From the IMG/VR virus record IMGVR_UViG_3300017917_001573, positions 1-64,000 of that record: DNA of 64,000 nt; one strand, written 5' to 3'. Below are positions 6,364-56,100 of this stretch, one piece after another. Below the pieces are notes generated by a model. It worked only from the letters and a program-made list of their open reading frames with translations, did no database searches and had not been told where the DNA came from. Made by a program: the position numbers and the translations under genes. The DNA comes from a virus. The number at the start of each line of letters is the position of its first letter. Position 1 is the first letter of the stretch.

Positions 6364-6749
6364 TGGAAAAAAGAAATATAAATACAGTAGTAAATATGTT
6401 CTTGTCAGAACTATTTGCATTTAGAAATGATGTTCATTTGGCACATTTGAATGTACATGGACCAGCTGCACATGCTGCACATATTGCGTTAAACGAATTG
6501 TATGATGCAATTTTAGAGTTTGCTGATGAATTAGTAGAAACCTATCAAGGACAATATGGGTTGTGTGATTTAACTATTCGGTCATCTAATACTTTAGTAT
6601 GTAAAGATCCATGTCAAGTAGTAGAAAAAATTATTCAATTTGTAAATACAAATAGAGCATGTTTTATAGATAGTCACCTACAAAACATTGTGGATGAACT
6701 AATTGCTTCTGTATACAAAGTATATTATAAACTAGAAAACTTGAAATAA
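6363..6749 (+). CDS. Ferritin/Dps-like protein
   Basis: HLAHLN..G..AHIALNELYD....DELVETYQG four-helix pattern. Confidence 0.8.
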   Translation: MEKRNINTVVNMFLSELFAFRNDVHLAHLNVHGPAAHAAHIALNELYDAILEFADELVETYQGQYGLCDLTIRSSNTLVCKDPCQVVEKIIQFVNTNRACFIDSHLQNIVDELIASVYKVYYKLENLK

Positions 6750-9700
6750 TGCAAATTTGGAGTGGATATGACCCAATAGATGATTGTGATCTACATTTAC
6801 TTAAACAGTATAAAGATGTAGATTATACTCCTGGGAAATATAAATGGTCTAAAACTAAAGAATTTTCTGTAGTAGGTAGAAGGTTTCAACTTACTGGAAA
6901 ATACTGTGATTATATGGAAGGTTCTCCTGCCTATGATGAATTCTGGGATATGGAAGAATATAAAATTAAGCATGGTATGATTAATAGTGATGGGCATTAT
7001 ATATGTGGTCCAATGTACTCCTATTTGAACTATGGTATCATTTATGATAAGAAACAAAAGAAATCTATTCAACCTGATTTTTGGGATTCTGATGCATACT
7101 TCTGGATAGAAGATTTAAAATCTGAAGTAAGAGGTGTGATGCTAGGTGGTACAAAAGCTCGCCAAAGAGGATATTCTCTAAAAGGAGCGCATAAAGTTAT
7201 TTTAAAATTTTATCACGTACCAAACTCCATTTCTTATGTTGGTGCATATATTGATGATAAAGCATCTAAGTTTTGGGAAATGGTTGAAGCAAATGCTAGA
7301 CATTTAGATTTAAATACTCCGTGGCATAAAAATAAAACCCCGTCTACAAAAGAATTTTGGAAAGCTCAAGTACAAGTAACTGAAGATACTGGTAAAAAAG
7401 TATTTAAAGGTTATATGTCTGAGTTTCATAAGGTTACATTTAAACAAAGCCCATCAAGTGGGGTAGGTGGGGCGTGTCATGGAAAAGACACCAAAATTGT
7501 TATGTCTGATGGGACATTAAAAAATGTACAAGATATAAAAGTAGGAGAATATGTAATTGGCGAAGATGGTAAACCTAAAAAAGTTTTAAATTTATTTTCT
7601 GGGCAAAAAGAATTGTTTTTAGTAGAACAAATAAAAGGTCAATCTTTTACAGCAACAGGTGATCATTTATTGTATTTAAAAAACAGAGATGTAAAAACTT
7701 CAGATGATTTTTTTACAGTACAAGTAAAAGATTGGAATAATTTATCCGATTGGAAAAAAACGGTTTACGTTCAAGTAAAAAATAGAACAGTTATACCATT
7801 TTGTAATATTGATCCAACAATTGATCCTTATTATTTAGGGTTATGGTTAGGTGATGGATTTAGAGATTCAATGCGCATTATTGTAAATAAAACAAAAGAC
7901 ATTGAAATATTCAATTACATCAAATCCTTTTTAGGTGATTATTCTTTGTATACAAGAAAAGAGGTAAATCGTTACAATGACGAAATGTATATAATGGGTA
8001 GTAAAATATCTATTGATCGTGAAGACACGCCTCTGTTAAAAGAATTTATAAAGTATAATTTGTTTTATAATAAACACATTCCTAAAGAAGTATTTAGTGC
8101 TTCTCCAGAATATAGATTAAACGTATTAGCGGGACTAATTGATTCTGATGGATATTTAAATAGTGTCAACTCATATGAAATATCCTGTAAAAGCGAGGAA
8201 TTGGCTAAACAAATTAAACTATTAGCTGGTGGATTAGGAGCATATGGTAATATATCAAAAAGAAGAAACAAATCTGGAATGTCTTCTCCAGATAGCATTT
8301 CACATGTTGTAAGATTTTATTTTACAGAACAAATAGTACCATGTTTATTGCCTAGAAAAGTAAACACATACAAAAAAGTAAAAGACACATCATCATCACC
8401 TATAAAAAGTATTACATCAATTGGAGTAGATAATTATTATGGTATTGAAGTAGAGGATCATTTGTATTTCTTAGAAGATTATACACTGACTCACAATTGT
8501 GACATGTTTGTATACGAGGAACCTGGTTTATCACCTACTTTAATGCAAACAATCAAGTATCTAGAACCCGCAATGTCAGATGGTGATTATAGAACTGGTC
8601 ACTTATGGGCATTGGGTTCAGTAGGGGAATTAAAAGATTCTAAAGACTTAGAAAAAATTGTACGTTCACCTAAAGACTATGGTTTTGCAGAATTTCCAAA
8701 TAATTTTGATCCTAAGAAATCAAATCCACCTTGCGGTTGGTTTCACCCTGCATCATGGTCCTATAAAGGGTATATTGATGAAGAAGGTAATTCTGATGTA
8801 GAAGGTGCAACAAAACGTATTTTTGAGAAACGTGATAAAGCAATTAGACAATCACCTAAAGATTATATTCTTGCAATTACACAAGATCCATTGACTGTTG
8901 ATGAAGCATTCCAAGCAAGGGATGTAAATAAATTTCCTGTTAAACTTATTTCTAAACGTTTAGCAGAATTAGAAGAATCTGGATTTAGAGGAACCTATGT
9001 CGATTTACAATTTGGTAAAGACGGTATTGAATGGGAATTAAGTGAAGACTATCCTGTTACAGATTTTCCTGTAAAAGAACATTCATACAAAAAAGGTTGT
9101 ATAGAAATATTTGAGTTTCCAGATATAACATTATCATTTGGTACATATGTTGCAGGACTTGACCCTTATAAGTTTGATGAATCAAAATATTCAGATTCTA
9201 TTGGATCTATTTATATATACAAAAGGACAGTAACATTAGAAGGTTCTTATCAAGATAGAGTTGTAGCATGTTATCATGGTAGACCAGATAACTTGGATAT
9301 ATTCTATGATAATATTGAAAAACTTGTAAAATTCTACAATGCACAAGTATTGATAGAAAATGATGTCAATGATATTATCCGACATTTCCTACAAAAAAAC
9401 CTACACAAATACTTAGCTAAAACACCAGGTTGGATTAAAGATGTAGCAAGTAATACATCTGTAAATACAGAATATGGTATTCGAGCTACTGTAAAAAATA
9501 TTGAACACTTTGAAAATTCTATTATCAAATATTGTATAGATGAGATTGGATCTCGTTTTTCAGAAGATGGAAAAGTGTCTGTACCTATTTATGGTGTAGA
9601 AAGAATTGATGACAAAATGCTATTGATAGAATTATTGGCTTATACTAAAAATGGTGGTAACTATGATAGGATACGTTCTTTTGGAATTACTTTAGCATTT

Positions 9701-9835
9701 GCTAATGGTATGGACCGTGTGTATACCAAAGGTGATGAAGCACCTGACTATAGTTATATGGCAGAAAGAGTAAAACACAAAGGTCCATTTGCTGCTAGTT
9801 CACATTCAACAATTCGTAAAAGACCTAGACGATGA
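6749..9835 (+). CDS. terL: Terminase large subunit with intein
   Basis: KARQRGYS Walker A, MFVYEE Walker B, AGLDPY RNase-H nuclease motif; precedes portal. Confidence 0.95.
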   Translation: MQIWSGYDPIDDCDLHLLKQYKDVDYTPGKYKWSKTKEFSVVGRRFQLTGKYCDYMEGSPAYDEFWDMEEYKIKHGMINSDGHYICGPMYSYLNYGIIYDKKQKKSIQPDFWDSDAYFWIEDLKSEVRGVMLGGTKARQRGYSLKGAHKVILKFYHVPNSISYVGAYIDDKASKFWEMVEANARHLDLNTPWHKNKTPSTKEFWKAQVQVTEDTGKKVFKGYMSEFHKVTFKQSPSSGVGGACHGKDTKIVMSDGTLKNVQDIKVGEYVIGEDGKPKKVLNLFSGQKELFLVEQIKGQSFTATGDHLLYLKNRDVKTSDDFFTVQVKDWNNLSDWKKTVYVQVKNRTVIPFCNIDPTIDPYYLGLWLGDGFRDSMRIIVNKTKDIEIFNYIKSFLGDYSLYTRKEVNRYNDEMYIMGSKISIDREDTPLLKEFIKYNLFYNKHIPKEVFSASPEYRLNVLAGLIDSDGYLNSVNSYEISCKSEELAKQIKLLAGGLGAYGNISKRRNKSGMSSPDSISHVVRFYFTEQIVPCLLPRKVNTYKKVKDTSSSPIKSITSIGVDNYYGIEVEDHLYFLEDYTLTHNCDMFVYEEPGLSPTLMQTIKYLEPAMSDGDYRTGHLWALGSVGELKDSKDLEKIVRSPKDYGFAEFPNNFDPKKSNPPCGWFHPASWSYKGYIDEEGNSDVEGATKRIFEKRDKAIRQSPKDYILAITQDPLTVDEAFQARDVNKFPVKLISKRLAELEESGFRGTYVDLQFGKDGIEWELSEDYPVTDFPVKEHSYKKGCIEIFEFPDITLSFGTYVAGLDPYKFDESKYSDSIGSIYIYKRTVTLEGSYQDRVVACYHGRPDNLDIFYDNIEKLVKFYNAQVLIENDVNDIIRHFLQKNLHKYLAKTPGWIKDVASNTSVNTEYGIRATVKNIEHFENSIIKYCIDEIGSRFSEDGKVSVPIYGVERIDDKMLLIELLAYTKNGGNYDRIRSFGITLAFANGMDRVYTKGDEAPDYSYMAERVKHKGPFAASSHSTIRKRPRR
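7475..8497 (+). mobile_element. Intein with LAGLIDADG homing endonuclease (aa 243-583)
   Basis: Starts CHGKDT, block B TGDH, LGLWLGDG and LAGLIDSDG, ends THN followed by Cys +1. Confidence 0.93.
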
Positions 9836-41293: not shown

Positions 41294-44200
41294 ATGCCTA
41301 CTACAACAGATATATCAAATATTATTACAGGTCAAAAACCTGTTTCTGTACAACTTGCAGAAATGCATTCTGATTTGTTAAACAATATCAGAGAAAATGT
41401 TATACCTATAACACCACAAGCATCAAGTAATTATGGATTAACACCAACTGCTGCACCACAACAAAAATCATTTGCAGAAGTTGCAGCAGAAGTATTCAGT
41501 AATCCTATTAGAAACAGTACATTCGTTGCACCATATGAATATGCTAAAAAATATGATGATAAACAATTGGGATTTAATGCTGCACGTTCTTTTGAAGACC
41601 AAGAAGATATGTATGCTGATAAATTGTATTCTAGTTTTGGTGGTGCATTGTTAGGTATTGGTAAAGGTGTTGCAAGTAGAGGTTTATCTATTATTCCTAA
41701 ATTTTTAAGTTCCGCAGGTGTAATAGGTGGTTTTACAGCAGACATTTTTAGTGGGAATTTATACAACGGAAAATTAAATTACACCACTGATAACTTCTTT
41801 TTACATCTAATGGATGGTATAGATGAAGGATTAAGAGAAGTAATGCCTATATATGCAGACAAAGACTATTTTGAAGGTGGTTTACTTTCTAAAATGGGTA
41901 CTATGAAATTTTGGGCAGATGACTTCTTTGATGGTGTAGCATTTGCTGTTTCTTCTTATGGTAACGTTGGTTTGCTAAATGCGGCAGGTAAACTTGGTAG
42001 ATTAGGTAAACTTGGAAAAGCGGCAATGGCAGTAGAGGAAGGTGTTGATGCTTTATCAGATGCTGAACGTTTTGTACAAGGTAGTGAAACTATTAGAGAA
42101 GCTGCTACCTTGTCTGCTAAAGAAATGATGCAAGGTTTTACAAAAAACTACAAAGGTTTAGACATTAATTTTCTAGCATCAGATGCTGCAAAAGCTACTT
42201 TAAAAAACTGGGCTAAATCTGGTGGTTATGCTACATTTAATACTGTAACTGAAGCTGGAGCTGAAGCTAGAGACTTTAAAAAGCAATACAAACAACAATT
42301 AATTAACGAAGGTTTTTCTGAATCAGAAGCAAATGATATTGCATCAGAAAAAGCACTTAATGTATTCAACGGTAATATCATTGCTTTACTAGGCTCTAAC
42401 ATTATTGAGGTTAGAACAATGTTTCCATCTTTGTTTGGTACTACTGAAAATGCATTAGCAACAGCTAAACGAGCAATTGTTAATGGTGAAAAAGTAGCTA
42501 CACAAAGTTTGGCTAAAACAATGCTAAAAGGTATTGGGTTGAATATTGCAGCAGAAGGCATGTATGAAGAAAACATTCAAACGTCTATACAACAATTTGA
42601 GAAATCTTCTTCCCCTGACAATACTTCATTTATGGATATGGCTACCAATTCTATAGCCACTATGCTAAATAACATTGGTTATTTTGGATCAGCTCTAACA
42701 GGTTCATACAAAGACATGTCTGCTGATCAAAAAGAAGCAGTTGACTCAATTGTATTAGGTGCATTGATTGGTGGTTCTATGGGATCAAAAGGTTCTTATA
42801 GTGAACATAAATTATTAGAAAATCAAATCAAAACATTTGGTTCTCAATATGAAGGTTTAAAAAATAAACAAGCTGAAATCTTTTCTGTACTAGGAGAAGA
42901 CTTGAAGAATATATACAAAAAACAAGTTGTTCAAAATCCAGATGGAACTACTACCGAAACATATCATGATGAGAATGGTAAATTAGTATTTGATGAAGAC
43001 AAAATTGCAAAACTAGCATTCCTTAATATTGAAAATCAGAAGTTGGTAAATGAATACTTGTATCGCATTACAAACAATGATAAAAAAGGTGCTGATATAT
43101 TGTTAGATCAACTACATGCTAGATATGCATTTCAAACATTAACAAATCCTATTTGGGATGGGGATGCAGATTTAGCATTGAAACATATGGAGAATTCATT
43201 GGATTCATTTGAAGACAAATCAAATCCATTGCTTGCTACATGGCAATCTAATAAAGAACGTATTAAAGAGTATACAGAAATCTTTAAATCCATACAACAA
43301 GAACAACTCAATAAAAAGATTGATAATGTTGCAGACTTTCAATTTGCTAAGTTTGCTTTAGCATCTATGTTTTATGAAAAAACTAAACAATCTACATTAT
43401 CAAGACAAGCAAATGAGTATAGAGAAGAACGTGCTGCATTAGATAACAAGTTTAAAGAACCTAAAGAGATTATTGATGAAAATGGTAAGATTGTAGATAA
43501 TCCTAACTATATAACTCCTACACAAGAGGAATCTTCAAAAATGTCTTATTTAAAAAATCAATTGTCTACAATTCAATCTCTTGTAGATAGTTCAGAAAAG
43601 ACTATAAACATGTTCAGAAGTGATTCTGAAAGAAAAGTTTTTTACAAAAGAATTTTCGAGAGACAATCTGAAATCAATGACTTATTTGACCAAAGCGATA
43701 AAGTAGATGAAGAGTTAAAAGAACTTGAAAAAGAGGTTAAAACAAAACAACAAGAACTCTCTGATTTAGAAAACAAAGAAGAACTTACTCCAGAAGAAGA
43801 AACTAAATTAAAAGAACTACAAGACGAAGTACAAAAACTATCTGATGATTATCAAAACAAATATGAATCACATGCTGCATTTGTTGCAGATTTTGAATCA
43901 AAACATAGATTTGAAGGTGATATGTGGTTGGTTAAAAACTTTGATATAAAGAAAGGTGATTATCGTTCTTTTTCTGAACAACTAAAAGATATTGATAATA
44001 CACCATTACAATACAAACCTTATCTTGAAGCATATCAAGATATGAAGTTGTCTGTAGAATTTCACAAGATTGTAAATGACTATTTGGAAAAAGCTAATAT
44101 TTCTGTATCTGAATTAATTTCTACTGTTAATAATTTTATTCAAAATAAAAAAGACATTAGTGAAGAAGATTTAGCTTTACTTGATTCTTTGTATCAGATG

Positions 44201-46960
44201 ATCAAACGTAAAAACGCTGATGACAAACAAAACAACGTATTAGTAGATTTAAAAAATGTAGTTCTTACTCCATACTATCATCCTAAAATATCTAATGTAG
44301 TAGGTTTGTCAGCAGAACTATTGTACAGTGATTTAGATGAAAATGAGGAAACTATTGAAGAAGTTACAAAAGAACCTGTAAGTGTATTTAAAGAATCATA
44401 TGAAAATTATTTACAAACTGTAGAAAGTTCAAAAAATAAAATTGCCGATATTCAATCTTTAATTGAATTTGAAAAACTATTAAAGAAAATGAAATTAGAT
44501 GGTGGTCCTGTTTCTTTAAATAAAGGTTTTGTTACAAGTAAACGTAATTGGGCATTAAACAAGCAATCCATAGGATACTACAAAACATCGACTAATCCAT
44601 CTGATTTTGAATCACCATCTATCTTGTTGATTGATACACTTGGTCCGTTAGCTAGATTCTTTTTTGAAAGAGGTTATATACTAAATCAATTAGCATTAGC
44701 TCAATCTAAGTTTGAAGCATATGATGCATTGTCTGATAAATCTATGTATACAGAAAGTCCTACTGCTCTACAAAATTTGTATACTACATTAAAAGCTTGG
44801 CAAAAACTAATTAAAGAAAAAGATAGAAAAAATACTGGTTTTTTTGATGGTTTATCTGATAACATTGATCAAGCATTAAACAATGTAGATACTATGTTGG
44901 ATGCTGCAATGAAATCTGGAGACAATAGAATTGCAATGCAGAATAAAATGTTTATGTTGAATTTACAACAACATTTTATATCTATGGGTTTTGATTTAAC
45001 ATCTGGTACACTTAAAGCGCATGCTACTAGTCCGTTAAATCAGTTTTTAAATCATCCTAGAATTAAACCACTTTGGGAAGATAAAGATGTTGCATCTTTG
45101 ACAGAATATGATTTTGAAACTATTGCTGTTGGATTAAGAACTGTAATGACACCTACTGAAATAAATACTATAACTCAGCAATTAATTACATCTAATAAAC
45201 AAACATACAGTGTATTTAAAAGTGTAATTGGAGAAAGATCAACTGTATATCCATCTGATTATATTGGTTATTTTATGTTGGAACTATTTAAAGTAGAATC
45301 AGATAGTATTGATAAATTTAAACAACATCAAAATCTACTAATTCTATTAGAAGATTTAAAATCAGATAGTACATCCAAATTTACCATAAGAGGTAAAGAT
45401 TATACTAAAGATGAAATCATTAATCTTGTAGAAAATTTACTAACACACAATTTAAATGAAACCGCTATCTTAAACTTGAATACTGATTTTGTATACAAGA
45501 ATTATTTGACAAAGCTTGATAAATATGAAAAAACTCAATCTATTGGTCTATCATCAGAACAAAGAATGAGTCACATGATTTTTTCTAAGTATTTGTCAAT
45601 GAAAATCAATTACAAACCATTGATGTTAAATGCTGTTGCTGGTTCTGGTAAAACATCTACCTTTAAATGGTTGTTTGCTACAAATGAAATTACAGCAGAA
45701 AATACTCAATTCTTTGCTACAACAGATACTTCTGTATCTAGTCTACAAAATTCATTGTCTGCAAATAATGTAACTGTAAAAAATATATCGACAATAGATC
45801 CAAAGGCTGATTATTCTAATACTAAACATCTAGTAGTAGATGAAATTGGTTTAATTAGTGACAGTAATACAACTACTCTTAGAAAAATTGCAGAAAAAAA
45901 TCCTCACTTAAAAATTATATTTTTAGGTGACAACAACCAACTTCCAAAAAATGCAATTCAAGTATCTCATTTGTTTTCATTCCAATTACTTTACAATACA
46001 CCTTTGACACTATCTTTTAGAGCAAAGGTTACATCTATATCTGATGCATTCTCTAAATTTAAAAACAAATCTACTGTACCAGATACAGTAACATTGTCTG
46101 CATCTGGACCTATTGGAAAATCTGTATATGGTGTACATTCTGTAAATGGAAATGATTCTGTGCAATCTGCAAAATTTGATGAACAAATTCAAATTGAAGT
46201 AGACAACAATGCTGATATATTGATTATTACCTCTACCGATAAAATTGATTCATACAAAAAGAAATTTCCTTCTGCTACTGTTGTTACACCAATTGATGCA
46301 CAATCTCTTTCTAAAGACAAAGTATTTATTGATGTATCCTATGCAGACTATACATCTGCAAGAACTGGTGTACCATATTATGCACAAAGTACCCAAGAAG
46401 TTAAGAATACATTGTTCAATACATTGATGTACGTGGCAATTAGTCGTGGTTCTGAGTATGTGATGATCAAAGATTATGACAATAGATTTTCTAATACAGA
46501 AGATACGAATTTACAACAATCTGTAGCAGACTCTATTCAAAAATCAGAAATTGAAATACAAAAAAACAAAGTTCTATTTCAAGATTGGATTAAAGATGAA
46601 TTAGCTAAATTTGGTGCAAAACCAACTGTGTCTAATACTACACAAACCCAACCTCAACCACAGACACAACCTCAAACAGAACCTACTACTGAAACTGAAT
46701 CAGAAACTGAATCTCAAACTGAAAATGAAACTCAAAATAATTCAAATTTATTTGAAGATACATTATCTGATACAGAAAAAGATTTAGTATCAAGATACCC
46801 AGAAGTATATGCTATATTAAAATGGGTATATGATACAAAAGGTAGTGAACAAATGCCTGACACTATGTACAAAGAAATGCTATCTTTGGTGTATCAAAGA
46901 CTAACTGATGAAGAATCTACTTTGATTCAATCATACATTAAAAAGCAATCTGAATGTTAA
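41294..46960 (+). CDS. Giant cargo protein: N-terminal membrane-spanning region, coiled coils, C-terminal SF1 helicase-like domain
   Basis: G/A-rich hydrophobic segments; AVAGSGKT, VVDEIG, LGDNNQL, SFR, AQSLS, YVAISRG. Confidence 0.78.
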   Translation: MPTTTDISNIITGQKPVSVQLAEMHSDLLNNIRENVIPITPQASSNYGLTPTAAPQQKSFAEVAAEVFSNPIRNSTFVAPYEYAKKYDDKQLGFNAARSFEDQEDMYADKLYSSFGGALLGIGKGVASRGLSIIPKFLSSAGVIGGFTADIFSGNLYNGKLNYTTDNFFLHLMDGIDEGLREVMPIYADKDYFEGGLLSKMGTMKFWADDFFDGVAFAVSSYGNVGLLNAAGKLGRLGKLGKAAMAVEEGVDALSDAERFVQGSETIREAATLSAKEMMQGFTKNYKGLDINFLASDAAKATLKNWAKSGGYATFNTVTEAGAEARDFKKQYKQQLINEGFSESEANDIASEKALNVFNGNIIALLGSNIIEVRTMFPSLFGTTENALATAKRAIVNGEKVATQSLAKTMLKGIGLNIAAEGMYEENIQTSIQQFEKSSSPDNTSFMDMATNSIATMLNNIGYFGSALTGSYKDMSADQKEAVDSIVLGALIGGSMGSKGSYSEHKLLENQIKTFGSQYEGLKNKQAEIFSVLGEDLKNIYKKQVVQNPDGTTTETYHDENGKLVFDEDKIAKLAFLNIENQKLVNEYLYRITNNDKKGADILLDQLHARYAFQTLTNPIWDGDADLALKHMENSLDSFEDKSNPLLATWQSNKERIKEYTEIFKSIQQEQLNKKIDNVADFQFAKFALASMFYEKTKQSTLSRQANEYREERAALDNKFKEPKEIIDENGKIVDNPNYITPTQEESSKMSYLKNQLSTIQSLVDSSEKTINMFRSDSERKVFYKRIFERQSEINDLFDQSDKVDEELKELEKEVKTKQQELSDLENKEELTPEEETKLKELQDEVQKLSDDYQNKYESHAAFVADFESKHRFEGDMWLVKNFDIKKGDYRSFSEQLKDIDNTPLQYKPYLEAYQDMKLSVEFHKIVNDYLEKANISVSELISTVNNFIQNKKDISEEDLALLDSLYQMIKRKNADDKQNNVLVDLKNVVLTPYYHPKISNVVGLSAELLYSDLDENEETIEEVTKEPVSVFKESYENYLQTVESSKNKIADIQSLIEFEKLLKKMKLDGGPVSLNKGFVTSKRNWALNKQSIGYYKTSTNPSDFESPSILLIDTLGPLARFFFERGYILNQLALAQSKFEAYDALSDKSMYTESPTALQNLYTTLKAWQKLIKEKDRKNTGFFDGLSDNIDQALNNVDTMLDAAMKSGDNRIAMQNKMFMLNLQQHFISMGFDLTSGTLKAHATSPLNQFLNHPRIKPLWEDKDVASLTEYDFETIAVGLRTVMTPTEINTITQQLITSNKQTYSVFKSVIGERSTVYPSDYIGYFMLELFKVESDSIDKFKQHQNLLILLEDLKSDSTSKFTIRGKDYTKDEIINLVENLLTHNLNETAILNLNTDFVYKNYLTKLDKYEKTQSIGLSSEQRMSHMIFSKYLSMKINYKPLMLNAVAGSGKTSTFKWLFATNEITAENTQFFATTDTSVSSLQNSLSANNVTVKNISTIDPKADYSNTKHLVVDEIGLISDSNTTTLRKIAEKNPHLKIIFLGDNNQLPKNAIQVSHLFSFQLLYNTPLTLSFRAKVTSISDAFSKFKNKSTVPDTVTLSASGPIGKSVYGVHSVNGNDSVQSAKFDEQIQIEVDNNADILIITSTDKIDSYKKKFPSATVVTPIDAQSLSKDKVFIDVSYADYTSARTGVPYYAQSTQEVKNTLFNTLMYVAISRGSEYVMIKDYDNRFSNTEDTNLQQSVADSIQKSEIEIQKNKVLFQDWIKDELAKFGAKPTVSNTTQTQPQPQTQPQTEPTTETESETESQTENETQNNSNLFEDTLSDTEKDLVSRYPEVYAILKWVYDTKGSEQMPDTMYKEMLSLVYQRLTDEESTLIQSYIKKQSEC
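46630..46745 (+). repeat. Low-complexity QP/ET linker with GAAACTGAA-type repeats
   Basis: TQTQPQPQTQPQTEPTTETESETESQTENET. Confidence 0.7.
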
Positions 46961-46961
46961 T

Positions 46962-49900
46962 ATGAATTGTTTTACTGAATTAGACAGACTAGTTGTTTCA
47001 ATCCAAGTATCAAAAGACCTGAAAGTTAATTTTGGGTCTTTTGATGTTCATATGAAACACATTTATACTACAAAACCATTACCTAAATCAGAAGGTTTAG
47101 AATACTACGAAAAGTATACAGAGTTATATAATTCTGTAGCATCTATGCTAGGTTTAGAATCTAGTTTAAATGTAGATGATGTTGTAGATTGGTACAATAA
47201 AAAACATAATCCTGTTACAGGACAAGGTTTACAATTTCCTTCAAGAGAACACATTAGACGTTCTAAAGACCAAGATGAAGAAAATGTGGGTAAATTTAAA
47301 GAAGGTGATGAAGTATTTTTAATCAAAGATGCAAATGGGAAAGTTGCTTTAGTAGGTAATCCAACTGCGTCTTTGTATAATGTACTTGCTGTATTGTCAG
47401 ATGATGAACTAACATTTCGATTCAAAGCATATACACCACTTACAGTATCTTCTAGTATACTAGAAAACAAGATAAATATTGAAAATGTATTTAATGCTCC
47501 AAAAGCAAAAGTAACTTTAGCAGAACCTGTAAAAACAGTATATGGAAATAATATACAAAATATTGAACCAGATCAAGTACAAGGTTCTTTAAATGCTATT
47601 GCTACAATGTTTGATGACTTAAATGACACTCAAGGAACTATTCCGTTACTAAGTATTGCAACACATTCTAATACAGATGAAGACTTTTTATTGGGTAGAC
47701 CTGTTGTAAAAATGCTCACATTAGATAATAATGGACATTATAAAATGGTTCCATTCCAAGTAGCATTGAACAAAGCGGCATTGTCAACAGATTCTCCTGT
47801 ATACAAGATGATGCAAACATTTTATGATAATGCTGTTATATTAAATAATGCTGGATTTCCAATGGGTTCTATTGAATTTGAAACATTGATTAAAGATGTA
47901 GCAAAATCATTTGTAAATGGAGAAATTTTATCCCAAAAGAAAAATGTACTTGTTTCTAAGTATGGACAAAGTGTATTTGATTCAGCATTGCAACTTGTGC
48001 AATTAACACATGGTCAAGAAAAAACTAAATATAGAAGTACATCTCTTGTAGATTTTTATACTACAGTAGGATTAAACGATAATCAAATACAAAAAAGAAA
48101 AGAACAACTTAAAAATCTGTTTGATGATTTTCAATTAACCGATGAACAAGTTGATCAAATTTTAAATTTGAATGATTTACTTTCAGGTAAAGTATTTGAA
48201 ATTGTATTTGGTATAAAGAATTCTGATTCACCTAGAACTCCAAAAACTAAAACTGTTGAAAAAGATGGTCAAACATATTTGTATACAGATTTGTTAGAAC
48301 AATTCAGAAAAAATATTCAACCATTGTTATCAGTAGAAACATCTGCTGGTGGTAGATATGAATTAAATCGTGTTGGAGATAAACTTGAAGAAAAACAAAA
48401 GATCAAAGGTGTTAGAACACCGCGTACTATTTTTACAAATAGAAACACAATTACCAAATATGAAAACGGTAAAGTTGTAGAATCTTATTATAGTCCACCA
48501 TTAATGAAAAATGGATATGGACCATTGCAAAAAGCTCTTAAACAACTTATTGCTGCAAACCAAGAATCTTTCTCTGGTACTTCAAAAACAGAAGGTACAT
48601 ATGTACATAACTTATTAAAACCTTTTTTTACAACAAGAGGTTCTAATGAAACAAAAGTATTTATTACAAAAGGTTTCTTTACATCAGATGACAATACTAA
48701 AAAACTTTATTTAAAAGGTATATTTAAAACATTACGTGCATTAAGCAAAGACTACAATACTAAAAAATACGATGATTTAGAAGATATGTCTAACCTTGAA
48801 AGTTTAGTAGAAGAGTTGGATATTATCGGTTTAGCAGAAGAAGATTTAGAAATGTTGTCTAATAACTTTAGTACATTCTATAATACAGAAAGACGATTTG
48901 AATCATTAAAAGATTACATTGATGCAGAATTAGAACAAATTCAACAACGTATTGAAAATGATAAAATCAATTTATCTGCATTGGGTAATTTCTTAGATCA
49001 ATCACATATTAATCCATCTACAAAAAGATTTAAAAAAGATGGTGAAAAGAAAGGTTCTTTCATTCGTAGTAATCCTAGATTAGCAGGTGAAATAAATGAT
49101 ACATTTGAAAAACAATATATTGATTTATTATCTTTAGCATATACATACCATACTAATCCTGAATTTAAATCTTTTATGGACAACAATCCTTTTTTAGAAA
49201 CAGGTTTTAAATTAAAAGATGAAACACTTACTAATACTGATCTTTTAGATAAGATAAATAGCATGCACAAAGAAACTGTTATTTCAGAATTTGAAAAATT
49301 AGTATCTTCTAATATAGAAACATCTGGTGTAATTAGAATTGAAAATTCCAAAGTTGATATAGATTTTAATTCAAATAATACTGTAAAAGAAGAATCTGTG
49401 TTAGAAGAACCAGCTCCTTCTACACAAACAGCTCCTGTTTCTACAAATACTAAAGCTGATATAGAAAGGAGAAGACAAGAAAAGTATAATACTCAGTACA
49501 ATAATTTAGTTTCTGGTAATGTATTAGATAATCAAGGAGACCCTGTTTTTGAAGAAGATAAAGGAATAGGAGCTAATGGTTTATTTACTTTAACAGAAAA
49601 AAAATATGGTCATGGTCACGTCAGAACTAGTGGGTTAAATTCTTTAAAGGTTCTTGAAGACTTATTAGAAGGTGCTGAGTTTTCAGGGTGGTTTGGAGAA
49701 ATTGGAGAAGGACCACATTCAACATGGGAGACTGGAAACTTTATAATTGTCTCTAATAATATCTATCCGATTAAAAACGGTAAATTAAACCTAAATGAGG
49801 TTGAGATAATATTAAATGCTGGATTAACTCCTTTTGCTCAAGAGCTTGCAAACAAGTATCCTAATGTAATTATTAAAGATTTTAATGGTAAAAAATATGA

Positions 49901-50162
49901 CGCAGAACTAGATTCTTTAGAAGATACTACTCAACCTACAGATGCTAAAGCTGATATAGAAGGATTTAAAGATTTTGTTAAAAATACTGACAACGTCACA
50001 GAACAAGACAATTCTGATACTGATACAGAAATCAATAGTTCCGAATTTGATGTATCGTATACTGATATTAATGTAACAGATGAGAAAGAACCTAACTCAG
50101 AAATTAAACCAGAAGAAAATAACAATGAACCATTAGATCCTTGTGATGGATTTGGTTTTTAA
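46962..50162 (+). CDS. Giant cargo protein with repeat-bounded insert
   Basis: 1066-aa ORF in cargo cluster. Confidence 0.7.
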   Translation: MNCFTELDRLVVSIQVSKDLKVNFGSFDVHMKHIYTTKPLPKSEGLEYYEKYTELYNSVASMLGLESSLNVDDVVDWYNKKHNPVTGQGLQFPSREHIRRSKDQDEENVGKFKEGDEVFLIKDANGKVALVGNPTASLYNVLAVLSDDELTFRFKAYTPLTVSSSILENKINIENVFNAPKAKVTLAEPVKTVYGNNIQNIEPDQVQGSLNAIATMFDDLNDTQGTIPLLSIATHSNTDEDFLLGRPVVKMLTLDNNGHYKMVPFQVALNKAALSTDSPVYKMMQTFYDNAVILNNAGFPMGSIEFETLIKDVAKSFVNGEILSQKKNVLVSKYGQSVFDSALQLVQLTHGQEKTKYRSTSLVDFYTTVGLNDNQIQKRKEQLKNLFDDFQLTDEQVDQILNLNDLLSGKVFEIVFGIKNSDSPRTPKTKTVEKDGQTYLYTDLLEQFRKNIQPLLSVETSAGGRYELNRVGDKLEEKQKIKGVRTPRTIFTNRNTITKYENGKVVESYYSPPLMKNGYGPLQKALKQLIAANQESFSGTSKTEGTYVHNLLKPFFTTRGSNETKVFITKGFFTSDDNTKKLYLKGIFKTLRALSKDYNTKKYDDLEDMSNLESLVEELDIIGLAEEDLEMLSNNFSTFYNTERRFESLKDYIDAELEQIQQRIENDKINLSALGNFLDQSHINPSTKRFKKDGEKKGSFIRSNPRLAGEINDTFEKQYIDLLSLAYTYHTNPEFKSFMDNNPFLETGFKLKDETLTNTDLLDKINSMHKETVISEFEKLVSSNIETSGVIRIENSKVDIDFNSNNTVKEESVLEEPAPSTQTAPVSTNTKADIERRRQEKYNTQYNNLVSGNVLDNQGDPVFEEDKGIGANGLFTLTEKKYGHGHVRTSGLNSLKVLEDLLEGAEFSGWFGEIGEGPHSTWETGNFIIVSNNIYPIKNGKLNLNEVEIILNAGLTPFAQELANKYPNVIIKDFNGKKYDAELDSLEDTTQPTDAKADIEGFKDFVKNTDNVTEQDNSDTDTEINSSEFDVSYTDINVTDEKEPNSEIKPEENNNEPLDPCDGFGF
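49441..49961 (+). repeat. 26-nt direct repeat (24/26 identical) flanking an in-frame 495-nt unit
   Basis: CTACAAATACTAAAGCTGATATAGAA at 49441 and CTACAGATGCTAAAGCTGATATAGAA at 49936 (KADIE). Confidence 0.85.
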
Positions 50163-53100: not shown

Positions 53101-56100
53101 ATTCAAGTTCTTCAATACGCATGGGGACATGGTAAATTTAAAGAAGACGCACACCATATCTTTTTACCTCAACAAGGTGATGCTACAACAGCATATGTAG
53201 CACAAGTTCCTCTTACGTTTAATACACGTCTTGCATTAGAAAGAACTCTAATGATGCAAGCTAAAAAACTTACTAAAGAAGAACAGATTGAAAAACTAGG
53301 TTATTCACTAAAAAAATATAATTTCAATGACATTGTTGATTTTGAATTGATGGATGAAGCAGTAAAGAAAGTAACATCTAAAATCAAAAATCAAACATTT
53401 ACATCAATGACTGAAAGATGTAGATTTCTTTTGGATCCAGCTAATAAAAATCTTTTAGATGAACTAGAAAAAGAATTTGAAAAACTTATTCTTAAAGAAG
53501 TAGATAAAGAAATTCAGTTTATTGCACAAAACAAATATCATTTTACAGATAACTTTTTTGGAAATGATGTATTTGCTACACAAGTAAAAAATGCAAAAAC
53601 TCCAGAAGAAGCAGCCAACATTTTAAGTAAAGATGTTGACTTTTTGCGTGTTATTAAAAAAATTCTATATTCGCATTCATACAATGGATATTTCATCAAT
53701 CAATATTTGAATGGTGATTCAGAAACATATGGTGATGCTGCTGGTACATTAAAACGTAGAGATAGTAATGGTTCACCAAAAGAAAGTATGCGTATTTCAA
53801 ATGGTACAGCCGTAAATACAACTGGGGCAAGAGTTAAATTTAGAGCAGCTGTTGTAAAAGATATAAATATTTTTGGGAACCTAGAAGATGTGGCAGAGAA
53901 AGAAGAAAAAGAGGGAAAAGAATTAGACCCAAATCTAAAGAAATGGACTTCTGAAATGTTGCTAAATGAATTAGGTTTTACTAAAGAATCAGATCCAGAT
54001 TTGTTTAATGAATGGGAAGGTGATTACAAACCATCTGATGGTCAAGGTATTCACATTAAACGTAGAAACAATGAAATTAGAAGAAACTATGGTACTGAAA
54101 CAAATTATGGTAGAATTCTAAAACCTTTGATCAATGATAGATACACCAGAAATGGATTTGAAACTCCCTTTATTGGAAAGTATTCTAGTATCCTACTAGA
54201 TGAAAGTGTTGCTAAAGTTTCTCCAATTGCTAAACAGATTATGGATTGGATGGAAAAACACAACATTGATGAACTATTATTTGATAGTGCTATCAAATGT
54301 GGTCAAATGGATTCTCAGTATCAGATAGATTTGAATGATATTCTAAACGACACTGTACCACAATCACATATGGATAGTGCTATTGTTGAACTTAACAATG
54401 ATGCATACGGATTGCAATTAGATCCTATTTCTACTGCTACAAAAGTTACATATCCATCGCAACTATTTTATTTCCCACGTATTACACAAGATTTAAAAGA
54501 ATTTAAAACTGGTGTTAATCCCATTGATATGTATCAGTATATGGCTGATCTAATTGATTTTAGAAAAAGTGTAGATGATAGAAAAACTAAGTTTGGAGAT
54601 AAATACAATAGAACAGTATTGTTGAATAAAATCAAAGGTCAATTAGATGCTAAAAATCTAATGGGTAACGACTTACTTCAAGATTTATTGAATGCATTTG
54701 TTAAACAGAAAAAAGGAAATATTGCATTTAACTTACCAGTATTCTCTGAATTCTTAGAAAATGCGATTCTTGGAGGTAGATATAAAAATGTAGTACAAAC
54801 CAAATTCAAAGGTAAAAAGAACGTTCTAGTTTCTTCTGTACTAACAAACAACTATGGTTATAAATTTGATGAAAATACTGAATCTAAAATACCTAATCTA
54901 AAAACTTACAAAAATGATAAAGGTGAAATTGTATCACAAGCTGTTGTTCCAAAAGGAAAGTACATAACTAAGTCAGATGGAAAAAAGGTATGGAAAGGTT
55001 TGATTCCAGAAGAAGTACAAAACAAAATGATTGCTAATCAAAAAGCAGGTAAAGACATTTTAGATGGTGTTACTGAACAATTTATTTTGTTCGGTTTCCG
55101 TATTCCTTCAACTGGTATCCACTCTGCATTACCATTAGAAATTGTAGGTTTTTATGATGATAAAGGTACAAATGGTATTATTGTTCCACCAGATGTAGTA
55201 CAGAAACATGGATCTGACTTTGACGTAGATAGCTTGTTTACTATTGCATTGGATGAATTTCAAGAAGATTTCAAGGTTGGAGATACTACATACAGAAAAA
55301 ATACTGTAGTTGGTGAGAATGGTTCTTTAGAAGATATGTTGAAAGAGTATGCTGAGAAACCTACTTCAGAATTAGAAGAGTATATTACAAAAGCATATCA
55401 GAACAAGATTGCATCAGAAATGAAAAAAATCTTTGTTCATAAACACAATGCTCACATGATGACTACTACCATTAATATGCAACCATACAAAGATGTTATT
55501 GAAAGATTGTATGGTAAAAAACAAAAGATCACAGATCCATCTACTATTAATGGTATGTTGAAACAAGTTGAAGTAGCAATGGCTGGTGTAACAGGTACAG
55601 GTATTTCTGCATCTGCATTAAAATTCTTAGGTTACATTTATGAAGCTGGAGAAAATGGTATTCCTAAATTTAATCCTAAAGTATTGGAAACTATTTCTTT
55701 TGTATCTAATGGTCAAACAAAAGTTATTGATCAAGTAACTATTGACAGAGATGCTGTAAAAGAATTGGATGGTCTAGTAAACTTGAACATTGATAACATT
55801 AAAGAGTTAGGTCTAGATGCATTGAATTTGGATACTAATACTATTACATTGTTTATTGCAATGAGAATGGTAGGTTTAGATTTGAATCAATCTTCTAAAA
55901 TCATGACTTCTAAATTAATGCGTTATCTCCGAGATAACAATTTAAAAGTCAATACCGATATGTTAGTTACATTTGGAATAACGGAAGAAGCTTTTTCAGA
56001 TAAAAATATTAAACTTGATTTAGATGCATTGTTTGATCCTAAAAACAAAAAACTGTTTAATACAGATTTTAACTGGTCTGGATCTGAATATGATTATTCT

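Follow-up and report, generated by a model that had tools for sequence, protein, structure and literature searches.

The first 64 kb of a 94,971-bp IMG/VR virus record (IMGVR_UViG_3300017917_001573; this whole analyzed stretch of 64,000 nt is called the window hereafter) carry, within a single open reading frame (ORF), a 26-nt direct repeat that we consider likely to mark a conserved in-frame slot for domain cassettes, present here in one copy. Such slots would be located in giant proteins that adjoin, or form part of, the virion RNA polymerase (RNAP) of a clade of crAss-like phages. The slot would consist of a short frame set between low-complexity linkers and made up of an N-terminal helix, (DIEAK)KADIERRRQEEL, and a C-terminal helix, (K)INAKYDAELAALE, here termed the N and C brackets, and the loop position of this frame would hold a passenger of about 10 to more than 250 residues. 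The 26-nt repeat would correspond to the N bracket of the cassette and to a truncated second N bracket lying 16 codons past the C bracket. The frame is apparently undescribed, and it would represent a new variant of motif-mediated module exchange.

A conserved motif pair with diverse passengers

The original prediction, made from the DNA of the window, proposed that the KADIERRRQE and KYDAEL motifs be searched in phages and the domains between them catalogued, and such a search does recover a conserved motif pair. Degenerate DNA patterns encoding KADIE[RK]RRQE and YDAELAALE matched 102 and 111 stretches of IMG/VR, respectively, against no match for a reversed-peptide control pattern, and 596 Gb of prokaryote genomes yielded only 12 matches, all of them on contigs of metagenome-assembled genomes. 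At many loci both motifs are found in one open frame of up to 4896 aa, with the N motif preceding the C motif. The 68 distinct cassettes extracted from these loci have N-to-C spacings of 31-286 aa and low-complexity linkers on both sides, and their extended consensus, (T/S)(D/N)IEAK-KADIERRRQEEL ... (K)INAKYDAELAALE, shows that conservation exceeds the letters searched for. The shortest form of the frame has 40 residues, and a profile of the minimal frame detects at least 450 protein clusters at E<=1e-5, in proteins of 143-2000 aa that are nearly all annotated as "hypothetical". For a 56-residue example of the minimal frame, encoded by another phage, the prediction is a helix-loop-helix (helix at residues 3-20, loop, helix at 29-55), with a predicted local distance difference test score (pLDDT) of 84.5, a predicted template modelling score (pTM) of 0.64 and agreement among five models. 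A search of the literature for the motif strings returned no papers. The extended N bracket (e.g. L022:4990-5049:-; labels such as L022, P0037 and G001 denote the loci, proteins and contigs compared) reads DIEAK-KADIE, a peptide palindrome, and the start of the C bracket (INAKYDA) resembles that of the N bracket (IEAKKAD), a hint that the two helices arose by duplication.

What the brackets enclose is highly diverse. Clustering of 63 passengers with BLAST gives 51 clusters, the module of the window forming one of its own, and a Pfam search of 69 cassettes returned sporadic weak matches and no consistent family, as it also did for the conserved downstream flanks. Comparison of related loci places this diversity precisely between the brackets. 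The flanks of L023 and L024 are colinear (84% DNA identity over 0.8 kb and 79% over 8.5 kb), and they cease to be homologous where the N bracket ends; similarity returns 17 nt ahead of the C motif, and the unrelated stretches in between measure 259 versus 415 nt. L031 and L041 differ likewise by an 87-aa passenger versus a near-empty, 39-aa form, and at least 10 loci sharing a common downstream flank (25-78% identity) have mutually dissimilar passengers of 31 to 200 aa. The converse arrangement, common cassettes in unalignable flanks, is observed for L024/L034 (84% identity, from 15 positions before the N bracket to the end of the C bracket), L038/L106 (91%, 828 nt) and L152/L178 (95%, 272 nt). 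In every pair examined the homology breakpoints fall within the brackets. Alternative and near-empty alleles between homologous flanks had been named beforehand as the decisive test of an interchangeable passenger, and their presence bears that idea out for the cassette family as a whole.

Cassettes may also stand in tandem (L027, L054, L038, P0004, G001 and P0028, the latter with three), with 14-25 aa from a C bracket to the next N bracket. Both ends of the 88.9-kb contig G001 (IMGVR_UViG_3300017766_003232) lie in frames of a tandem cassette array (the end of L009, and L003:1-600), where the assembly apparently broke at the repeated brackets; one passenger of this terminal array looks like a helix-turn-helix domain.

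The repeat and brackets of the window

The two repeat copies of the window are identical at 24 of 26 bases and start 495 nt (165 codons) apart. Both are in frame (TNTKADIE, residues 828-835, and TDAKADIE, residues 993-1000), and they form the best 26-mer self-match of the host ORF; none of 200 codon-shuffled ORFs reached 24 of 26, the maximum of 23 being attained twice, so that the repeat originally reported is real and exceeds what codon shuffling produces. The enclosed segment also reads as claimed (KADIERRRQE ... KKYGHGH ... KKYDAELDSLE), and its distinct codon preference is confirmed: GGA is used at 47% versus 28%, ATA at 45% versus 18% and GAG at 33% versus 10%, and its codon log-likelihood falls in the lowest 2.4% of same-size windows, with ordinary GC content overall and at third codon positions. 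The six residues identical between the two copies share their codons, which is only mildly surprising given codon bias, and hence the 26-nt identity need not imply a recent duplication. The two copies are two instances of one conserved protein motif.

The limits of the true unit would be drawn by the conserved motif pair, with KADIERRRQE as N bracket and a YDAELAALE-like C bracket, rather than by the two repeat copies. Residues 829-851 of the host protein match a profile of the frame to which only other phages contributed (independent E-value, i-E, 6e-6), and the codons of the N bracket agree with the cross-phage nucleotide consensus (AAA GCT GAT ATA GAA ...). The C bracket, a degenerate copy, retains YDAEL, the consensus GCA (Ala) and CTA (Leu) codons and the spacing to the following N bracket, which at 16 aa lies within the range of the tandem cassettes, and the second KADIE of the window fits this tandem pattern. 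No C bracket follows the right repeat copy; P0037 likewise has an N bracket, a short tail and a Cys-containing C-terminus. The host protein begins MNC... and ends ...DPCDGFGF, and P0037 ends ...DECNGF after its cassette, N bracket and tail.

Duplicated motifs accompany this same module elsewhere: the start motif (KADIE) is duplicated downstream in the window and in P0002, the end motif (KYDAELAAIE) is duplicated upstream in G001, and both are duplicated in P0006. Junctions of a C motif, a T/S linker and an N motif also occur away from the module. Two candidates were discarded. The frame profile does not detect an "empty frame" proposed at residues ~641-662 of the host protein (TERRFESLKDYIDAELEQI). 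In a non-circular test, only one or two junctions lacking the module scored above the null, and the view of the junction motif as a general connector gave way to that of an N...C frame.

The same module in otherwise unalignable proteins

The virion-packaged RNAP of crAss-like phages is marked by a DFDxD motif (bioRxiv 10.1101/2020.03.07.982082; PMC7886860), and the module of the window recurs around proteins bearing it. Its copies are 45-83% identical in amino acid sequence across otherwise unalignable proteins and stand at differing positions within them; outside the ~160 residues of the module, the host proteins align neither with the protein of the window nor, a few close pairs excepted, with each other. 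In the window, G001 and L016 the module belongs to the gene that precedes the one for the DFDxD protein; L013 has it in the gene that follows, and L014 inside the 3536-aa DFDxD protein. The L014 locus (L014:3-10613; IMGVR_UViG_3300035182_001043) is a single 3536-aa frame with the DFDxD-type motif GADYDVD and a distant copy of the passenger at residues 2667-2801, and here the passenger is part of the RNA-polymerase-like polypeptide itself.

The phage of the window and G001 are distant relatives, with aligning core proteins 19.5-33% identical (TerL 25%, portal 23%, major head protein 19.5%), yet their modules are 71-80% identical and their DNA homology covers exactly 49441-49920. In other phages DNA homology to the module starts within about 30 nt of position 49441. 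The copies of G001 and L016 are closer, at 88.5% nucleotide identity and a synonymous divergence (dS) of 0.41, with abrupt ends and unalignable flanks. The passenger thus behaves as an exchangeable unit, in that homology stops at the brackets and the module resides in unalignable hosts.

Conservation of the brackets at the codon level

The brackets are conserved in DNA as well as in protein. Ile is encoded by ATC at position C1 in 37 of 62 cases (background 10%) and by ATA at N4 in 62 of 67 (background 40%), Leu by CTA at C9 in 36 of 66 (background 10.6%) and Ala by GCA at C7 in 55 of 65 (background 33%), adjacent Ala positions using GCT. Some of these fixed codons are rare in the host ORFs, and the corresponding p-values range from 1e-17 to 1e-21 in binomial tests that take the cassettes as independent. 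The search patterns allowed all synonymous codons, and the conservation is therefore no artifact of selection. It points to selection acting on the DNA, or to continual homogenization by recombination in the brackets, and both would fit a role of the brackets as homology arms. Pairing of N and C brackets as RNA is not above that of shuffled sequences (-10.2 versus -7.0 +/- 2.5 kcal/mol).

Location beside a virion RNA polymerase-like protein

At 15 loci a DFDxD-like motif is found 4.4-10.9 kb downstream of the cassette on the same strand, and in 9 of these 15 within the same ORF; in the window the distance is 5.8 kb. All six near-complete cassette-bearing records encode the portal family of the window. 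The 2677-aa protein downstream of the host ORF carries the crAss-like virion-RNAP motif as GSDFDVD, which is kept in its G001 and L014 homologues; it has no sequence match to solved structures, and its assignment to the RNAP is thus by the DFDxD motif alone. The slot lies in, or directly upstream of, a DFDxD virion-RNAP-like protein, which agrees with the placement of the repeat in a cargo protein by the original prediction.

Packaging of RNAP-block proteins has been shown for phi14:2 (bioRxiv 10.1101/2020.03.07.982082) and for PhicrAss001 (PMC10172136), and for the giant RNAP-associated proteins that virions of the latter contain, ejection in a partly unfolded state has been proposed (PMC10172136). 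By its synteny with the DFDxD protein, the host protein of the window may be packaged as well, and passengers might then be injected with the genome and act as anti-defence or toxin-like effectors. A passenger of P0037 matches the AAA_33/Zeta-toxin P-loop kinases (E 2e-16, residues 1365-1515) and is flanked by an N bracket at residue 1356 and a C bracket at 1532, and NUDIX and SF1 helicase domains are found elsewhere in frame-bearing proteins.

Weighing the explanations

In the explanation that we favor, the DNA of the brackets would act as paired homology arms, and co-infecting phages would recombine inside them, so that the passenger is replaced in frame and the host protein left undisturbed. 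Several points weigh against it. No orthologue of the window's host protein was found, and alternative or empty alleles are thus known only at the homologous slots of other phages. The prediction regarded the flanking helices as a hairpin stalk, and a helix-loop-helix is indeed predicted for the minimal form; the putative packing of its helices into a hairpin comes from one AlphaFold2 (AF2) model, whose Foldseek neighbors (ESCRT helical hairpins) are non-significant. A hairpin is not supported for the window's own copy, whose C bracket (KYDAELDSLE, residues 978-988) is degenerate, matches the independent frame profile weakly (i-E 0.13) and has a pLDDT of 41 in the AF2 model of the module. For the window and G001, synonymous changes in the module have reached saturation, so that this pair by itself is no proof of recent transfer, and identical residues use the same codon at a frequency of 0.67 in the module and 0.60 in core genes (p=0.13); the reading of the pair's 80% nucleotide identity as such proof was dropped after this codon control came out no higher than the core genes. 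Besides the assumption of independence in the codon tests, shared descent or a recent spread of the brackets would also yield synonymous conservation. All loci are metagenomic assemblies, in which conserved brackets of 36-54 nt could in principle seed chimeric joins. Neither a cassette protein nor the N-bracket DNA was found in deposited phage genomes, although the low-complexity filter may hide short purine-rich matches, and hence no cultured system is at hand. Lastly, the Zeta-like kinase is the one recognizable enzyme among the passengers and the sole support for an effector role.

A more ambitious version of the same account regards the brackets as a dedicated in-frame "domain integron" of crAss-like phages. 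As protein they would form an insulating alpha-hairpin that allows any folded domain to be carried on the virion-packaged RNAP complex, and as DNA they would stay constant as homology arms, through which co-infecting phages swap plug-in cassettes for injected effectors (kinases, DNA binders and possible ADP-ribosyltransferases). We entertain this version tentatively, as a possibility somewhat short of probable. Were it true, the hundreds of dark passengers would amount to a catalogue of early-acting domains for host takeover or anti-defence. It is rather unlikely, in turn, that the brackets matter only as protein, for instance in a hairpin that targets the capsid or serves for docking, or in sites at which a protease frees the passengers from a polyprotein; exchange and the conservation of the DNA would then be by-products of ordinary illegitimate or homologous recombination in fast-evolving genes. 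The near-invariance of the amino acid motif across phages with core proteins 20-30% identical would agree with such a role, as would the resemblance of the frame between its linkers to a separate structural unit, the existence of standalone homologues (~180 aa) of the window's passenger, as if the free domain were functional, and the identical motifs on both sides of the passenger, which would suit paired cleavage sites. Selection on the protein leaves unexplained, however, the rare synonymous codons (ATC, CTA, GCA) at set positions and the breakpoints located at the brackets in each pair examined. Phage head proteases have consensus sites such as L/I-x-E in T4 and S/A/G-x-E in phiKZ, and KADIE does not appear to fit these known sites. 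A protein role of the brackets can nonetheless coexist with the cassette slot proposed here.

The mechanism originally envisaged, in which crossing over between the 26-nt direct repeats excises or inserts a unit of 165 codons, now appears improbable. The repeat is in frame and beyond chance, a deletion between its copies would remain in frame, and P0002 has the same KADIE...KADIE arrangement, but the moving unit of other phages ends at the C bracket and not at a second N bracket, its breakpoints being in the N and C brackets. A deletion of this kind would leave an N bracket without its C bracket, no deleted allele has been seen, and the right repeat copy is explained as a further N bracket by the tandem architecture described above (L027, L054, L038, P0028 and P0037). 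We give very little credence to the idea that the repeat, devoid of mobility and function, is what a local tandem duplication left behind or the chance recurrence of a charged helical motif, beside a domain that is fixed, strongly constrained and vertically inherited. The saturated synonymous sites of the window-G001 pair leave room for it, since purifying selection alone could yield 80% identity, and each member of the passenger family has a single copy of the domain. It is at odds with the differing positions and genes occupied relative to the DFDxD protein, with the G001/L016 module at dS 0.41 within unalignable flanks, with the 51 passenger clusters flanked by the bracket pair and with the absence of matches to the control pattern. 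Equally hard to credit is an assembly artifact, whereby short-read assemblers would have joined different phages at their 36-54-nt brackets. All loci do come from metagenomic contigs, and the brackets are near-identical across co-occurring phages. L023 and L024, however, were assembled from separate samples, and over 9 kb their two flanks remain colinear at ~80% identity, so that each contig would need two compensating chimeric joins; the G001 contig ends within a cassette array, which indicates that assemblers tend to stop there and not to join; and chimeric joins, if there were any, would not alter the conclusion that more than 50 distinct passengers occur naturally between these brackets.

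The passenger domain of the window

The passenger of the window is predicted as one confident alpha/beta domain (AF2 with a seven-sequence alignment, pLDDT 85.5, pTM 0.82). Its family comprises only 22 clusters among 1.84 billion representative proteins, always as a single copy, in hosts that are mostly of 786-2566 aa and carry the domain at widely differing positions. Three standalone members of 180-192 aa start just before the N helix and end in ...GKKY. In two proteins, P0026 (4104 aa) and P0027 (1735 aa), similarity is confined to passenger residues ~28-64 (VLDNQGDPV...GI) but occurs eight times each, and they seem to contain a repeated short unit resembling this segment.

Invariant positions in 27-28 sequences are T878, G883-H884-G885, FxGxFG at 907-912, E948, N952, K972-D973 and G976. 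An enzymatic role is probable, given that residues of the types H, E, N, K, D and T are among those that never vary, and the domain may be ADP-ribosyltransferase (ART)-like. H884 (YGHG), F911 (FxGxFG) and E948 (ExILN) follow one another in an order that would fit the H-[YF]-E of these enzymes, and this putative H-[F/Y]-E site is a lead. The nearest solved fold is the ART-like C-terminal domain of Tpt1 (Z 3.9, root-mean-square deviation 3.1, 79 residues aligned), followed by DarT1 (Z 2.9), DarTG (Z 2.3) and CteC (Z 2.2), all of them below the usual noise level of the tool. Foldseek of the passenger against the PDB gave nothing at E<=0.001, a search of the ESM Atlas gave nothing, and the best viral fold neighbor of the passenger is annotated as a "Large polyvalent protein associated domain" (E 2.4e-3, query TM-score, TMq, 0.43).

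Genomic context

The window has a crAss-like layout, with large terminase, portal (phrog_6547) and major head protein at 6.7-15.3 kb and giant ORFs in series across 29.8-63.1 kb; the features of the host ORF and its neighbor are collected in Table 1. Kinship with crAss-like phages makes Bacteroidota the likely bacterial hosts of phages with the frame. The host protein matched no Pfam or PHROG family, tblastn with the whole protein found nothing in deposited phages, no homologue was detected for its residues 1-810, and sequence searches of solved structures with the host protein or a profile of the passenger domain were as unsuccessful as that with the neighboring giant protein. The original prediction placed the cassette in a disordered acidic linker, and the flanks are indeed polar or acidic and of low complexity: 46% S/T/N/Q/P/G upstream of the repeat unit and 28% D/E in the 78-aa C-terminal tail. 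Disorder of these flanks is suggested by composition only.

Table 1. Features of the host ORF and the adjacent giant-protein gene (positions in the window)
Feature	Start	End	Strand	Remarks
Host ORF	46962	50162	+	1066 aa; directly upstream of the DFDxD giant-protein gene
Weak third repeat copy	49339	49364	+	73% identity; NSKVDID; possibly a decayed N-bracket-like motif
Left 26-nt repeat copy	49441	49466	+	TNTKADIE; start of N bracket; DNA homology to G001 starts at its first base
N bracket	49452	49487	+	KADIERRRQEKY, residues 831-842; putative first helix of the frame
Passenger	49488	49895	+	Core of a ~150-aa alpha/beta domain (predicted); rare unnamed family
C bracket	49896	49922	+	YDAELDSLE, residues 979-987; partly degenerate (INAK)YDAELAALE copy
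Linker, C bracket to next N bracket	49923	49946	+	DTTQPTDA; T/Q/P-rich
Right 26-nt repeat copy	49936	49961	+	TDAKADIE; second N bracket, truncated after KADIE
C-terminal tail	49962	50159	+	Acidic, low-complexity; ends ...DPCDGFGF
Neighboring giant protein	50194	58227	+	2677 aa; GSDFDVD at residues 1673-1679, DFDVD at nt 55216-55230

The gene upstream of the host ORF (41294-46960) encodes a 1888-aa protein with an SF1 helicase/AAA_30 domain at residues ~1436-1562, the sole Pfam or PHROG match among the host protein and its neighbors. Homology links the N-terminal part of this protein with the N-terminus of P0010 (2400 aa), in which the window's passenger lies close to the C-terminus. The large terminase ORF (6749-9835) is unusually long, at 1028 aa: residues 585-988 match one terminase family and residues ~190-575 a second one, with weaker primase and helicase matches, and it could represent a duplication, a fusion or an inserted element.

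Significance and comparison with known systems

Few known viruses exceed the crAss-like phages in abundance, yet the giant proteins of their RNAP block are almost entirely unannotated. If the slot is as we propose, one pair of ~12-residue motifs delimits hundreds of autonomous domains in these proteins, providing domain boundaries for structure prediction and expression and a simple search handle with which to catalogue candidate injected effectors. The slot would also illustrate how phages at 20-30% identity in their core proteins can still trade protein modules in frame, and a further use that could be attempted in laboratory phage-host systems is the engineering of cargo into virions, with the frame as a site that tolerates insertions.

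Several known systems share part of these properties. Polyvalent proteins of phages and conjugative elements (Iyer et al. 2017, PMC5512222) are likewise giant multidomain proteins of mobile elements, thought to be borne with the DNA, with variable domain combinations, and relatives bearing the frame contain Zeta-toxin/AAA_33, NUDIX and SF1-helicase domains; the protein of the window, by contrast, matches no Pfam large polyvalent protein associated domain (LPD) or other family, and the exchange unit is here set by one fixed motif pair conserved in DNA. In the text of PMC5512222, "linker" occurs 0 times and "hairpin" in no relevant sense, and no conserved bracket motif is described. The virion RNAP and cargo proteins of crAss-like phages (phi14:2 gp66, bioRxiv 10.1101/2020.03.07.982082; PhicrAss001 gp45-gp50, PMC10172136) occupy the same genomic block, the 2677-aa neighbor has the DFDxD motif and at 9 loci the cassette is in the motif-bearing polypeptide itself; no description of such cassettes was found in this literature (bioRxiv 10.1101/2020.03.07.982082, PMC10172136, PMC7886860).

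The antigenic-variation systems of Neisseria (pilE/pilS) and Borrelia (vlsE, with 17-bp direct repeats), as well as integrons with their attC sites, resemble the slot in that a fixed expression site takes alternative bounded cassettes. They differ from it in that no silent donor array is present here, the passenger being single-copy in the 95-kb record, and, with respect to integrons, in that there is no integrase or attC-like palindrome, the units are in-frame protein domains and not genes, and the donors would be other phages; inverted repeats like those of attC were not found at the cassette ends, where bracket complementarity stays within that of shuffles. A diversity-generating retroelement fits no better, for the passengers of different loci are unrelated instead of differing at adenines only, and the 95-kb record holds one match to the protein and no template repeat. 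A further parallel is that of the T-even phages, in which His boxes and glycine-rich motifs of gp37/gp38 reportedly flank swapped hypervariable adhesin segments. There too, short conserved motifs flank unrelated segments in frame, and recombination at the motifs swaps them. The setting is nonetheless an RNAP-associated cargo protein here and a receptor-binding protein there, and instead of loops, whole folded domains of up to ~250 aa would be exchanged, between brackets that form one motif pair common to very distant phages and a predicted hairpin.

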